Shown here: in pieces, positions 38,523-45,829 of the stretch
Position numbering within the stretch: position 1 is the stretch's first letter
How the letters are laid out: the number at the start of each line of letters is the position of its first letter
NCBI GenBank assembly: GCA_016188605.1
Contig: JACPHP010000015.1
Coordinates: forward strand, 18,833-82,832
DNA from: Candidatus Spechtbacteria bacterium
Lineage (GTDB): Bacteria; Patescibacteriota; Minisyncoccia; Spechtbacterales; JACPHP01
Reading direction: 5' to 3'
Length of the DNA stretch: 64,000 nucleotides
Notes under the pieces: generated by a model
What the model saw: the letters and a program-made list of their open reading frames with translations, nothing else
What the model was told of the DNA's origin: nothing
Database searches by the model: none
Made by a program: the position numbers and the translations under genes

Positions 38523-38844
38523 ATTGAATGACTACAATAAAATATTCTTTGACGAAATAAACAATTAAGATTCTTTTATTGAAAAGAGCCTTGTAATTCT
38601 GCGGTTGCGCATCATACAAATAAAGTCGGATATACTTAGTACTGCTCGGCTTAATCCCTCTCGGGGCTTACACCTGCAGCCTATCAACCTGATAATCTTT
38701 CAGGAATCCTGAGTTCTAATCTTGGGGCGAGTTTCACGCTTATATGCTTTCAGCGTTTATCTCTTACGAACGTAGCTACCCAGCAATGCTCTTGGCAGAA
38801 CAACTGGTAGACCAGAGGTTCGCTCTCTCCGGTCCTCTCGTCAC

Positions 38845-39720
38845 TTTTCCCCCTATTTCTAGGAGCGCAGACTATATCTTCATCCTCTCTAATTTTAATT
38901 AGAGTAGGAGTTGGCGTATTACCCATATGTCAGCGTATTCTTCCTTGTCAGCCTCTGCATGAATTACAAATAAATGTAATTCAACGCTTAGGCTGAGTGG
39001 AATACTTGCAGAACATATAAGTCGTTATGTTCGATTAATCTCAAACATAATCAGTCGTTACGGGGTTAAATCTAGAATTTTATACAATTCGCTTTTTGTT
39101 TTCTTCCTCTTAGTAACGTAATTTTCTCTTTGGATTACTAAGATAAAGTCAACAAGTTCTGCTAATTGCTTTTTTGTTAGCTGATTAAATTTTGTAGAGG
39201 CTAGAATTTCGCATGCTTTAAGTAATGCGGAAGCTTGAAGTTCCTTGAAACGAATATAAGGCAATAAATTTTTAAGAATATCTCTTATTTGCTTATAACC
39301 ATTTATCCGAAGCTCGGTCATCCCATCATTTCTTTTGGAAATATAACCGATTCTTAGAATTTCTTGTATCCAATACAAAGTTTTTTCATGTCTGGTGTCT
39401 TGATAAAAACAAATGACTGGCATAAATCGAATTCCGATTGCGCCATCCTTACGCTTTTTTATTTGAAGCATAAGACTTCCGTCTCCATCAAGGAAACCAG
39501 ATATGTACGCTAACTCAATTTTAGATCGACTTCCCACGGTATTATCTTATCACATTCTGGTCCTCAAGCAAATTCCGACATATCTAAGGACCGTGTGATA
39601 TGTTTTCTCATTCGAACCAAAATAATAATTAAGATTTCACCGTTATTAGCCAAATTGTCATCGCAAATTACTTCGCGAAGTAGCAGGGCCTTAAAGGCCT
39701 ACTAGGAGAGACCCCCCTCA
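38845..39720 (-). mobile_element. Group I intron (I1) in the 23S sarcin-ricin-loop region, carrying a LAGLIDADG ORF
   Basis: Exon breaks after ...CTCCTAGTA and resumes ...TGACGAGAGGACC. Conserved group I S-element GATGAAGATATAGTC at 38880-38866. Boundaries approximate. Confidence 0.6.
39058..39537 (-). CDS. LAGLIDADG homing endonuclease (single-motif)
   Basis: YISGFLDGDGSL motif. 159 aa, inside intron I1. Confidence 0.8.
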   Translation of the reverse strand: MGSRSKIELAYISGFLDGDGSLMLQIKKRKDGAIGIRFMPVICFYQDTRHEKTLYWIQEILRIGYISKRNDGMTELRINGYKQIRDILKNLLPYIRFKELQASALLKACEILASTKFNQLTKKQLAELVDFILVIQRENYVTKRKKTKSELYKILDLTP

Positions 39721-39861
39721 AAACTCGACGCCTGCAACAGATAGAGACCAACCTGTCTCACGACGGTTTGAACCCAGCTCGCGTACCGCTTTAATTGGCG
39801 AACAGCCAAACCCTTGGGAGCTTCTCCACCCCCAGGATGCGACGAGCCGACATCGCTGTCG

Positions 39862-40285
39862 AATTTTTTTGTGATCCATACTTTCATATGGCTTAGACTA
39901 TATCTTCATCTCGTCTCGGATACCAGTGTTAAATAACACATCATATCTCAATTTTTTTGACGAGAGTCGGCGTGTTGCCTTGCACTAAATGGCAAAGCCT
40001 CCCCTTTCGGGTCAGTCGTTACGGGGTTACAACCGGTGCCAATGCACCGGAAATCCCAAATCCCAATTTTCAATTTCCAATCAAATCCCAATTACTTAAA
40101 TCCCAAAACGTTTTGGTCATTAAATCATTTAGTCATTGATTGGTCATTGGAGTTTGGTCATTGGTCATTCCAGCACTTTGTGCTGGTCGAACTTCCCACG
40201 GTGTTGCCGGGCGACATGTCTCTATCATGTCACTGACGGGTTCTCCGTTATAAGCCGAATTTGTTGGTAGAGCATTGCTGCTCTA
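39862..40285 (-). mobile_element. ORF-less group I intron (I2) at the ~L2500 site of 23S
   Basis: Exon GTTTGGCACCT | intron | CGATGTCGGCTC. S-element GATGAAGATATAGTC at 39907-39893. Interior contains tcccaaa/ggtcattg simple repeats. Confidence 0.55.
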
Positions 40286-40419
40286 GCACCCCGATGTTTC
40301 AAGGTGCCAAACCGGGCCGTCGATATGGACTCGCGGGCCCGATTAGCCTGTTATCCCCAGGGTAACTTTTGTCTGATGATCTTCTCCTTTTCTATGAAAA
40401 AGAGTCGGTTCACTAAGTT

Positions 40420-40545
40420 CTGCTTTCGCAACTTGCCAATGCTCCGCATTGGCACACTGATATACACAGATACGAACACGGATATACACCGATTTTATCT
40501 GTGTTAATCCGTTTTCTTATCCACGTTAATCCGTGTGTCAGTGCG
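40420..40545 (-). repeat. IVS-like insertion, family A copy 1 (in 23S, near E. coli ~2375)
   Basis: ccaatgctccgcattggcacactgatatacacagatacgaacacggatatacaccgattttatctgtgttaatccgttttcttatccacgttaatccgtgtgtcagtgcgaagcactgacatc. Identical to 44207-44332. Confidence 0.7.
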
Positions 40546-40693
40546 AAGCACTGACATCTTATACTCCCGCTTGATTTTACTCTCGAGGTTTCTAAGAGCG
40601 CGGCTTACTTGCCTTGCAGTAAAGCCAGTTTGTGCCTTTACGCGACCACTCCGATTTCCATCCGGAGTTAACTGACCTTAATAAACGCCTCCG

Positions 40694-43545: not shown

Positions 43546-44206
43546 ACAAGCGCTGTTTGACGTTCCGGCATTGGTCAGGTGTCACCCCCTATACATCCTC
43601 TTACGAGTTAGCAGGGAGCTGTGTTTTTGTTAAACAGTTGCCAGGCAAAATTTAACTGCGCCCATCTTGCGATGGGAAGGCATATTCCGAAGTTACGCCT
43701 AGCTTTTTTGCCGAGTTCCTTAACGAAGACTCGCTAGTTCACCTTGGGCTACTCGCCCTGCCTACCTGTTTCGGTTTGTGGTACGGGCCCAACTCATCTG
43801 ATCGTAGAGAATTTTCTTGGAAGACTGCTCTCTTAAATCGGTCTTGACGTGTCAAAACCTGTTTCCTACTTCATCGGTTTATACCATGCGGATTTACCTA
43901 CATGGCGACCTCAAAATAGAAACGTAAATCCAATAATACGCTTAAGATACAAATCTCCGTCATCCCATAGAAATGAGTTGAGGGGCTGGAATATTAACCA
44001 GCTGTCCATCCCCCAGAGCCTTTCGGCTGAGAGGTTAGGGCCGCCTAACCCTTGGATGATTGCCATTGCCAAGGAAACCTTAGGCTTTCGGTGGGCCGAT
44101 CTCGCATCGGCCATGCGGTTACTCATGCCAACATTCTCACTTCTCTACGCTCCACCGCCCCTCACGAGACGACTTCACAGCATAGAGAATGCTCTCCTAC
44201 CACGCC

Positions 44207-44332
44207 AATGCTCCGCATTGGCACACTGATATACACAGATACGAACACGGATATACACCGATTTTATCTGTGTTAATCCGTTTTCTTATCCACGTTAATC
44301 CGTGTGTCAGTGCGAAGCACTGACATCCACGT
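44207..44332 (-). repeat. IVS-like insertion, family A copy 2, at the classical 23S helix-45 (~1170) IVS site
   Basis: Identical to 40420-40545. Flanking exon TACCGAAGACGTG | A | GCGTGGTAGGAGAGCATTCTC aligns with E. coli 23S ~1160-1180. Confidence 0.7.
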
Positions 44333-44964
44333 CTTCGGTAATATATTTGAGCCCCGGTACATTTTCGGCGCAAGAACTCTCGACTAGTAAGCTGTTACGC
44401 ACTTTTTAAAGGATGGCTGCTTCTAAGCCAACCTCCTAGCTGTCTGAGAATTCTCACCTCCTTTTCCACTTAATATATATTTAGGGACCTTAGACTGTGA
44501 TCTGGACTGTTTTCCTCACGAGCGCGGAGCTTAGCCCCCGCGTTCTAACTCCCTTCTTATCAATTCAGGAATTTGGAGTTTGATTGATTCGCCTAGGCGA
44601 AAGCCACGACAAATCATCCAGTGCTCTACCTCCTAAATGAAACAGAAGAGGCCAGCCCTAGAGCTGTTTCGGAGAGAACCAGCTATTACCAGGCTCGATT
44701 AGTTTTTCGCTACTCCCCACAGTTCATCACATAGTTTTGCAAGGCTAACGTGTACGGGCCTCCCTCCAGTTTTATCCGGAGTTCACCCTGACCATGGGTA
44801 GCTCGCCTGGCTTCGGGTCTTATGTGTGCCGCCAAGTACGCCCTATTAAGACTTGGTTTCCCTACGCCTTCGTTCCCATCGGAACTTAGACAAGCGACAC
44901 AGATAAACTCGTTGGCTCATTCTTCAATAGGCACAGCGTCACTCCTCGCTACCGCTCGGAGCTC

Positions 44965-45095
44965 CGAAATCAAATCTCAAAAATCAAATCTCAAAATTGT
45001 GGTATCGCCTTGCGGCGATTATATAGTCTCGCAAAGCGAGACACCTTAGTTTTGAGATTTGAGATTTTAATTTTGAGATTAGAAGCTCGGAGCGA
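44965..45095. repeat. 'atctcaaa' word-palindrome element inserted inside the 23S gene
   Basis: ...gctcggagc|tccgaaatcaaatctcaaaaatcaaatctcaaaattg...ttttgagatttgagattttaattttgagattagaa|gctcggagc.... 9-bp direct repeat gctcggagc at both borders. Confidence 0.55.
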
Positions 45096-45404
45096 TAGCG
45101 ATAAAGCTCCGCTTCTCTGTAGGCATATGGTTTCAGGTACTATTTCACTGCCCTCACCGGGCTACTTTTCACCTTTCCCTCACGGTACTAGTTCACTATC
45201 GATCATCAAAAGTATTTAGCCTTAGCTAATAGTATAGCTAGATTCGCTCGAGGCTTTCGTTCCTCGAGTTACTCAAGAATAGCAACAGGAGATGTGAATT
45301 TTTCGTCTACGGGACCATTACCCTCTTTGGTCGCCCTTTCCAGGGACATTCGACTAAATTGCACATTTTGTGACTCCTTTGGATTGCTCCAATGCTGCCA
45401 TCTT

Positions 45405-45530
45405 ACAACCCCCATCCTTCGCTCTTTACTTCGTAAAGAGCTTCGGAATGGCAAGCCACTATATAAATTTCTGGCATGCTGTTCCGTAGCTCCTTGCGGA
45501 GCAAAGAGCGAAGGACGGGTTTGGGCTTTT
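45405..45530 (-). repeat. Structured insertion, family B copy 2 (23S 5' domain)
   Basis: ccttcgctctttacttcgtaaagagcttcggaatggcaagcc...ctccttgcggagcaaagagcgaaggacg. Confidence 0.55.
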
Positions 45531-45829
45531 CCCTGTTCGCTCGCCGCTACTGAGGGAATCATAGTTATTTTCTTTTCCTCCGCTTACTGAGATGTTTCAC
45601 TTCAGCGGGTGTGGGTTCCAGCTTGCGCTGGAAGAATGCGGTTTTGCCGCACTGAGTTTCCTCATTCGGAAATCCCCGGATCATAGGTTGCTAGGCACCT
45701 CCCCGAAGCTTATCGCAGCCATGCTACGTCCTTCATCCCCTTTTGATGTCAAGGCATCCACCATACGCCCTTAAAAATGTTTGCATGATGCAGTTAAATG
45801 CTCCTCGCTATGCTCGCTCGTCGCAGACG

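Follow-up and report, generated by a model that had tools for sequence, protein, structure and literature searches.

A 23S rRNA gene of Candidatus Spechtbacteria with five predicted group I introns, one of them in the sarcin-ricin loop

Insertions in the ribosomal RNA (rRNA) genes of the candidate phyla radiation (CPR) were reportedly first noted by Brown et al. in Nature in 2015. According to a later survey (Tsurumaki et al. 2024, J Bacteriol, PMC11270868), 82% of 348 CPR 23S rRNA genes carry insertions, with up to 16 per gene, and 45% of these insertions are group I by Rfam and cluster in the 3′ half around the peptidyl-transferase centre. Open reading frames (ORFs) of the LAGLIDADG_1 family are described there as concentrated at positions 1917, 1931, 1952, 2593, 2604 and 2657. 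Variants that lack an ORF are noted at these sites too, the intervening-sequence sites of helix 25 and helix 45 carry short insertions that are not introns, and I-ShaI, a related enzyme from CPR, is described as having cut its own insertion site (PMC11270868). The subject of the present analysis is the 23S rRNA gene in a stretch of 64,000 nt from Candidatus Spechtbacteria (positions 18,833 to 82,832 of contig JACPHP010000015.1, assembly GCA_016188605.1; this whole stretch is called the window, and all coordinates refer to it), which very probably represents a single CPR 23S gene that is split at five critical, conserved positions by mobile, self-splicing group I introns.

With respect to the host clade, the presence of several group I introns in the 3′ half, the LAGLIDADG ORFs, the ORF-less variants and the short insertions in variable helices, this gene is like those in the survey (PMC11270868), and its architecture, including the sarcin-ricin-loop site, is already a documented CPR trait. 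Sites 1917 and 2657, the latter in the sarcin-ricin loop, belong to the published list, while the other three sites found here, L1943, L2262 and L2500 (E. coli 23S numbering), are not named in the text, in which the recurrent sites are catalogued as 23IS6-14 and the positions of 23IS9-11 are left to the figures; the published positions derive from an alignment with Escherichia coli and are by the authors' own statement not exact splice sites, and L1943 might have been lumped there with the class called '1931' or '1952' (PMC11270868). The survey lays stress on single-domain enzymes, whereas two of the three ORFs described below are two-domain proteins of 289 and 216 amino acids (aa). A full-text literature search returned no intron papers for L1943, L2656, L2657 or L2262, and L1943 was not found in the published record as a hot-spot under that name, even though its endonuclease has ~200 homologues in CPR; such absence is no proof of newness.

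Outside the CPR, Raghavan et al. (2007) reportedly described two group I introns in the 23S gene of Coxiella burnetii that flank a 34-bp exon between L1917 and L1951, one of them with a LAGLIDADG ORF. The gene analysed here likewise has a tiny exon between two introns, of 26 nt between L1917 and L1943, but differs from that of Coxiella in having five introns instead of two, in its second site, which is L1943 and not L1951, and in the canonical terminal G of all five introns. A free-living bacterium studied in the same year is said to have fewer introns than the present gene. Its 23S gene likewise contains several group I introns that carry LAGLIDADG ORFs, L1917 being among the sites (PMC1995217), but the bacterium belongs to another phylum and has no intron in the sarcin-ricin loop.

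Biologically little is new, the phenomenon and the sarcin-ricin-loop site having already been published for CPR; what the locus offers is a fully resolved example of a single CPR rRNA operon heavily loaded with mobile ribozymes. It is conceivable, if on balance doubtful, that several details are undescribed, namely the L1943 lineage, the exon-supplied stop codon at L2262, the subgroup-IA-like L2500 intron and the hairpin modules, and these four need a systematic survey before a claim of novelty is made.

Extent of the 23S gene and identity of its five introns

The gene, which is bacterial, extends over 7,156 nt of the minus strand (45775-38620), of which introns make up 3,662 nt and exons, with five hairpin inserts counted in, ~3,494 nt; all introns, ORFs, hairpin inserts and RNA genes located below are on the same strand. 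This is the 7.2-kb extent that an initial annotation, made by eye from the sequence, had proposed, and it is borne out in three ways. Rfam aligns LSU_rRNA_bacteria in two minus-strand pieces (45770-43414 and 41869-39731), and BLAST against the 23S rRNA of E. coli yields the exon blocks that the annotation had described, twelve in number and colinear, with E. coli 23-2782 corresponding to 45762-38716. Finally, an inverted repeat (I6), the arms of which are 28 nt long, 93% complementary and 7,330 nt apart, brackets the gene as a processing stem (5′ arm 45937-45964, 3′ arm 38579-38606, minus strand). The exons still total ~3.5 kb after removal of the introns because the five hairpin modules sit in variable helices.

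Between the exon blocks the BLAST alignment leaves five large gaps, all in the 3′ half of the gene. A covariance search with RF00028, run at an E-value threshold over 4.6 kb, gives exactly five matches in the 23S region, one per gap, in keeping with the five group I introns claimed initially. The match in intron 4 (40311-39875; 50.1 bits, E = 7e-11) reaches the gathering score of 50 bits, and the others are found in intron 1 (43285-43036; 45.2 bits, 2e-9), intron 3 (41630-41369; 39.3 bits, 1e-7), intron 2 (42159-42008; 34.1 bits, 4e-6) and intron 5 (39052-38849; 28.1 bits, 2.6e-4). Rfam at its gathering threshold alone would accordingly recognise one intron in five.

The junctions were fixed by comparison with E. 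coli, with the long CPR contigs L086, L088 and L090, which had been retrieved via the intron 5 endonuclease, and with ~130 related CPR loci, and the E. coli numbering of the sites was checked by string search. By this comparison with intron-less homologues all five introns were upheld, but three of the sites estimated by eye had to be moved, from ~L2240 to L2262 (according to homologous introns and 30 intron-less alleles), from ~L1931 to L1943, i.e. after GCGAAATTCCT and not after GCGAAATTCC, and from ~L1900 to L1917. The two remaining sites stood as proposed: one inside the sarcin-ricin loop (L2656), the other after GGCACCT (L2500, confirmed by the E. coli numbering). In terms of 23S helices (H) we take L1917 to lie in H69, L1943 just 5′ of H71, L2262 in H81, L2500 in the peptidyl-transferase ring and L2656 in the sarcin-ricin loop.

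With a caret marking the splice point, the predicted spliced junctions read GTAACTAT^AACGGTCC at L1917, AAATTCCT^TGGCAGG at L1943, CTAGCCT^CCTAAATTG at L2262, GGCACCT^CGATGTC at L2500 and CTCCTAGT^ACGAGAGG at L2656. Other CPR loci have three of these junctions uninterrupted: 19 loci that of L1917, two of which agree with it at all of 30 nt, 23 loci that of L2262 and 53 loci that of L2500. The 23S gene of L090 is uninterrupted at both L1943 and L2500. Among the relatives sampled, the fraction with an intron is 6/31 at L1917, 2/16 at L1943, 16/46 at L2262 and 18/71 at L2500; each site is thus filled in only part of the related CPR genomes, a pattern that mobile introns would produce.

All five introns have a U at position -1 and a G as their final base, and for each a P1 helix with a U.G pair at the splice site can be read. 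The P7 pair GACU/AGUC is present in every one of them, and the P3 pairing is kept while its sequence varies (UCUUGC/GCAAGA, UUUGGC/GCCAAA, UCAGC/GCUGA, UCGGC/GCCGA and UUGGC/GCCAA). P10 is a perfect 6-bp helix at L1917, L1943 and L2500. The motif of the P7 3′ strand, GATATAGTC, occurs six times in the window where 0.27 copies are expected, a number reached by none of 100 shuffles, and these copies are distributed one per 23S intron, the sixth being in a group I intron of the 16S gene. The initial annotation had placed this conserved S element near the 3′ end of each intron; it is present in all five, but since the ORF of the L2262 intron comes after the ribozyme core, the copy in that intron is ~690 nt away from the 3′ end.

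Introns 1 and 2 are separated by a mini-exon of 26 nt (43023-42998; E. coli 1918-1943), the sequence of which, AACGGTCCTAAGGTAGCGAAATTCCT, matches E. coli and L090. In standard rRNA annotation such genes come out truncated or split: in this window Rfam missed the mini-exon and ended the 16S gene ~1.5 kb early. Exact splice sites are needed for the reconstruction of mature rRNAs, be it for phylogeny or for the modelling of ribosomes.

The individual introns and their endonucleases

Intron 5 (L2656; 39700-38842, 859 nt) splits the sarcin-ricin loop at CCUAGU^ACGAGAGG, i.e. CCUAGU^ACGAGAGGACC, with P1 formed by UAGU/GCUA and a final G, and its removal restores CCUAGUACGAGAGGACC as in E. coli. Over ~710 nt it shares 76-79% identity with the introns that occupy this site in L086, L088 and L090, which are Taylorbacteria- or Nomurabacteria-type contigs, and the same 3′ junction, searched as a pattern of P7-P9 plus the sarcin-ricin-loop exon, is found in at least 120 metagenome contigs. 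Complete members of the family, 37 in this set, range from 377 nt (without ORF) to 859 nt. From 32 distinct cores a consensus fold was obtained that has P2, P3, P4, P5, P6, P8 and P9 as well as two additional helices located between P7 and P3, and compensatory changes are seen at most pairs of P2, P7.1, P7.2 and P8; P7 and P9 are invariant in this alignment, but the search pattern had selected for both. With its extra helices of the P7.1/P7.2 kind, the predicted fold of intron 5 resembles subgroup IA.

Of the three LAGLIDADG ORFs claimed initially, all three score above the curated Pfam cut-offs. That of intron 5 (39537-39058, 159 aa) lies in loop L6 and matches LAGLIDADG_1 (1.4e-11; 45.6 bits, cut-off 23.1) with the single motif GFLDGDGSL. 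It belongs with the I-CreI, I-MsoI and I-CvuI family (E = 1e-10 to 1e-24) and has 2,462 homologues, many of them 76-83% identical in Nomura-, Niyogi- and Taylorbacteria. The DNA of the sarcin-ricin loop, TCTCCTAGTACGAGAGGA, is pseudo-palindromic, its centre, GTAC, coinciding with the insertion point, and such a site would suit a homodimeric enzyme of the I-CreI type. Slightly upstream in the gene, L090 carries an intron of ~409 nt that the present gene lacks (39763/39762), at a site estimated as ~E. coli 2593.

Intron 4 (L2500; 40301-39856) interrupts the peptidyl-transferase region and is one of two introns described initially as compact and ORF-less; both do lack an ORF, but instead of the estimated ~360-425 nt they measure 446 nt (intron 4) and 378 nt (intron 1). 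P1 is GCACCU/GGGUGC, P10 is ACAUCG/CGAUGU and the final base is G. The simple repeats ascribed to one of the ORF-less introns were located in this one by Tandem Repeats Finder, where they form a long hairpin of 143 nt (40040-40182; fold z-score = -5.1) that fills loop L6. Nineteen related L2500 introns in CPR range from 233 to 847 nt; in these and the L1943 introns, taken together, covariation is discernible by eye in P2, P6 and P10. The insertion point, after GGCACCU at E. coli 2500/2501, is the same as that of the organellar site-2500 introns, of which GISSD holds 22 from mitochondria and plastids, all assigned to subgroup IB4 (PMC3873408). Unlike these, intron 4 shows, after the 5′ strand of P7 and before the 3′ strand of P3, two additional hairpins that resemble P7.1/P7.2 of subgroup IA, and it is the L2656 intron of the same gene that it resembles. 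Judged by structural likeness and not by formal classification, it therefore looks like a different lineage at the same site, and the coloniser of L2500 in CPR may have been a subgroup-IA-like intron with no relation to the IB4 introns of organelles.

Intron 3 (L2262; 41635-40706, 930 nt), in what is presumably H81, is built differently in that its ribozyme core (41630-41369) comes first and the ORF follows after P9. P1 is GCCU/GGGC and the terminal G is at 40706. Two sources fix the junction as CCT^CCTAAA, namely the homologous introns that L086 and L090 carry and a set of alleles, 30 of them intron-less and 16 interrupted. An alternative junction after U2272, which would leave only the TAG in the exon, was rejected on the evidence of the homologous introns and the 30 intron-less alleles; the misplacement arises because the first seven intron nucleotides, CAAGAGU, mimic the exon sequence AAAGAGU.

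The ORF of intron 3 (41344-40694, 216 aa) encodes a double-motif protein (LLGDGHL and WFMDDGS) with a strong match to LAGLIDADG_2 (6.2e-48; 163.4 bits, cut-off 25), and its closest solved structure is I-SceI (2.3e-30). That the stop codon of one endonuclease ORF is supplied by the exon, as had been noticed at the outset, holds for this ORF, which in fact runs 9 nt, i.e. three sense codons, plus the TAG stop into the 3′ exon (40705-40694). The exon stop is UAG here and UAA in E. coli and most relatives (E. coli 2272-2274), and the same read-through into the exon is found in a full-length homologue with 51% identity (L124) and in a remnant (L117). As the reading frame continues past the 3′ splice site, an excised intron by itself would have no stop for its ORF; because the stop used is the UAA/UAG conserved in the downstream exon, this endonuclease lineage may reach a proper stop only in translation from the unspliced precursor rRNA.

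Intron 2 (L1943; 42997-41949, 1,049 nt) has P1 UUCCU/GGGGA, a 6-bp P10 (CUGUCA/UGGCAG) and a final G. A splice point after CCUCU was rejected, as it gives a poorer H71 stem and no P1 containing a U.G pair, whereas the L1943 splice point yields P1 together with the perfect P10 and is common to the homologous introns at the same site in three CPR loci (L092, L093 and L094), in which P10 and P6 change together with their partners when compared by eye. The ORF (42901-42032, 289 aa), the 3′ end of which overlaps the ribozyme core (P7-P8), encodes a two-domain protein that matches LAGLIDADG_1 in two stretches (6.7e-13; 49.9 bits, cut-off 23.1) with the motifs GFFAAEMS and LAGVIDGEGSF. It has 216 homologues at ~50% identity, and the closest solved structure is I-OnuI, with a weak match (6e-5).

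The hairpin immediately downstream of L1943 (41948-41929) we take to be H71. In the four intron-bearing genes, i.e. the present one and L092-L094, its stem carries compensatory changes (GGCAG/CUGUC, GGCAU/AUGUC, GUCAG/CUGAC and GUCUG/CAGAC), intron-less genomes have GUCGG/CCGAC, and the P10 guide of the intron changes to match the hairpin. These changes could reflect co-conversion or a divergence of the endonuclease target. L1943 may be a distinct recurrent site with its own two-domain LAGLIDADG lineage, at which the P10 guide and the adjacent hairpin change together. In the same region L086 has an intron at L1951 of the same gene, and L092 and L094 have an intron apparently ending 12 nt before L1943, which would leave an exon of 12 nt.

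Intron 1 (L1917; 43401-43024, 378 nt) lacks an ORF and shows P1 AACUAU/GUAGUU, P10 ACCGUU/AACGGU and a final G; its site lies, by our assignment, in H69. With respect to the endonucleases as a whole, the three ORFs are intact, retain the acidic residues of their motifs and represent the I-CreI, I-SceI and I-OnuI lineages. The targets of I-CreI and I-MsoI are presumably at L2593 and that of I-SceI at L2449; compared by sequence with these enzymes, the present ORFs differ in location, at L2656, L2262 and L1943.

Splicing, homing and alternative readings

Taken together, these features suggest that each intron would fold as a group I ribozyme with an internal guide that base-pairs to both exons, forming P1 (with its U.G) at the end of the 5′ exon and P10 at the beginning of the 3′ exon. 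Attack on the 5′ splice site would come from an external guanosine, and the freed exon end would in turn attack after the terminal G, by which the exons would be joined; after five such splicing events the 23S sequence would again be continuous and conventional. The three LAGLIDADG enzymes would presumably cut intron-less alleles, the repair of which copies the intron in, and homing of this kind would account for the patchy occupation of the sites among related CPR genomes. The two ORF-less introns would be derivatives that lost, or never had, an endonuclease gene. A single 23S rRNA would then need five splicing events, including those inside H69, the peptidyl-transferase ring and the sarcin-ricin loop, and the 16S rRNA two more.

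Several points weigh against this reading. Four of the five RF00028 matches (28-45 bits) are below the gathering score, those of L2656 (28 bits) and L1943 (34 bits) being partial alignments because ORFs interrupt the core. The pairing models are partial for P4-P6 of intron 1 and for P6 of intron 2, P10 is weak at L2262 and L2656 (3-4 bp or unclear), and the terminal G of L2262 is ~660 nt downstream of P9. Splicing, exon ligation and homing in the organism rest on inference from the sequence, and a 23S group I intron of Simkania is, to go by the title of a report, said to be unspliced.

One or more of the introns might accordingly be degenerate, being either excised without ligation, which would leave a fragmented 23S rRNA comparable to that produced at RNase III intervening sequences, or dependent on a maturase derived from the host or from an endonuclease. 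Besides the low RF00028 scores and the remote 3′ splice site of intron 3, this idea is favoured by intron 4, which has no ORF and an L6 loop full of simple repeats, by an extra insertion of ~100 nt near P3/P4 of intron 1 when compared with L086 and L090, and by the five hairpin inserts in the same gene, a type of insert that other bacteria cleave but do not ligate. It is nevertheless improbable, as the U at -1, the terminal G, P1 and P7 are kept in all five introns, and three have a perfect 6-bp P10, which counts against degeneracy because P10 matters only for exon ligation. In addition, the L2656 and L2500 families are structurally kept, with compensatory changes, across dozens of divergent genomes, and a break in the sarcin-ricin loop or in the peptidyl-transferase ring is probably incompatible with function.

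A second possibility, that of an assembly chimera or a non-functional rRNA pseudogene with the five-intron arrangement occurring in no single cell, has to be considered since the sequence comes from a metagenome-assembled genome (MAG), since internal repeats, including 124 identical nucleotides present twice, can mislead short-read assemblers, and since each intron is present in some relatives and absent from others. The exon blocks, however, are colinear with those of E. coli and of CPR relatives, with no segment missing or duplicated, the exons are conserved at functional sites, and the 28-nt processing stem brackets the gene. CPR genomes, according to Tsurumaki et al. (PMC11270868), usually have one rRNA copy. 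An identical intron 5 ORF is moreover found in independent assemblies from several sequencing runs, and relatives on long contigs have three to five insertions in the same gene, all of which makes a chimera or pseudogene highly improbable.

The preferred reading, a functional bacterial gene split by mobile introns, agrees with the host, which is a CPR/Patescibacteria bacterium represented by a Candidatus Spechtbacteria MAG, the gene being its single 23S gene; the initial annotation had named no host. The ORFs of intron 5 and intron 2 are 100% identical to the GenBank entries HYV65_03270 and HYV65_03285 of that MAG (83.6-kb contig), the near relatives of the locus are all Patescibacteria contigs, and the gene order mechanosensitive channel, 23S, 5S, ..., RodA is common to Taylorbacteria and Nomurabacteria contigs. 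Although large-subunit rRNA genes with multiple introns and LAGLIDADG ORFs are classic in organelles, L1917 and L2500 are well-known organellar sites and the endonucleases resemble the organellar I-CreI, I-MsoI and I-SceI, an origin from a green-algal chloroplast or a mitochondrion can be dismissed on the gene context, the neighbouring genes being bacterial (rpoB, an undivided rpoC of 1,220 aa, rodA and an undecaprenyl-diphosphatase-like gene) and the G + C content 42-53%, in addition to the identity of the ORFs with Spechtbacteria proteins and the Patescibacteria relatives.

Hairpin modules, the 16S gene and the surroundings

In addition to the introns, the 23S gene contains five hairpin inserts in variable helices that are not introns (121-143 nt, fold z-scores of -5 to -10.8) and that the initial annotation had not mentioned. 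One of them, a module of 124 nt (40558-40435; -56.8 kcal/mol, z = -7.6), lies in what we take to be H86, where L086 has no insert. A second copy (44327-44204) is found between E. coli 1144 and 1186, presumably the helix-45 intervening-sequence site, and BLAST shows the two to be 100% identical over 124 nt (repeat family D1). The 16S gene has an 82%-identical copy at 58823-58910, in the region of E. coli 439-506. This module could be a small mobile or gene-converting element, or alternatively an expansion or intervening-sequence module.

The remaining three are an insert of 126 nt between E. coli 1854 and 1878, in a helix assumed to be H68 (43556-43431; z = -7.5), one of 121 nt in domain I, in the E. 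coli 270-422 region (45525-45405; z = -10.8), and one of 141 nt between E. coli 528 and 621, which we assume to be the helix-25 intervening-sequence site (45095-44955; z = -8.2), the arms of which consist of TCAAATC-type repeats. The first two form, together with a hairpin in the 16S gene (59284-59392; E. coli 68-101 region), a second family of ~120 nt with arms that are 77-94% alike. In 129 other CPR loci searched for these modules the 124-nt module was not found, and the second family gave one weak match (L198). Judging by their sequences and positions, the modules of both families may be small elements, mobile or spreading by gene conversion, with the tips of rRNA helices as their targets.

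Simple-repeat hairpins of the TCAAATC/TTTGAGA and AATGACC/TTGGGAT types are found in the 23S insert at 44955-45095 as well as in L6 of the L2500 intron (40040-40182). Similar repeats are intergenic at 8723-8836, 10906-10961, 14382-14499, 18956-19072, 27987-28077 and 63569-63689, one of them in the spacer between rpoB and rpoC.

The 16S gene extends from 59454 down to 56290. The Rfam alignment of positions 1-1533, which ends at 57844, is forced, as E. coli positions 1499-1534 align at 56331-56296, ~1.5 kb further on. After roughly E. coli position 1397 there is an insertion of ~1,022 nt (57887-56866) with a LAGLIDADG_1 ORF of 189 aa (57484-56915); its match to group-II-D1D4-1 is sub-threshold (33.6 bits, gathering score 35), and it matches the LAGLIDADG-carrying, group II-like CPR insertion at position 1400 in PMC11270868. 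A group I intron of 447 nt without ORF (56778-56332; RF00028 35.1 bits, E = 2e-6) follows U1498, with the junction GAAGUCGU^...G^AACAAGG and the sixth copy of GATATAGTC at 56363-56371. Both types of 16S insertion have been described for CPR (Tsurumaki et al. 2024, PMC11270868).

Downstream of the 23S gene is the 5S rRNA gene (38525-38414; RF00001, 84.7 bits), immediately 3′ of which a perfect palindrome of 25 + 25 nt (38349-38398) is probably the terminator of the 23S-5S transcript. Upstream, Rfam identifies genes for tRNA-Ile (48591-48519) and tRNA-Ala (48200-48127), and the interval between tRNA-Ala and the 23S gene holds two ORFs, one undecaprenyl-diphosphatase-like and the other mechanosensitive-channel-like. 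The rRNA genes do not form one compact operon (46428-57844), as ~7.7 kb with several ORFs separate the 16S gene from tRNA-Ile and tRNA-Ala; among these ORFs one is adenylosuccinate synthase-like and one contains a nucleotidyltransferase domain.

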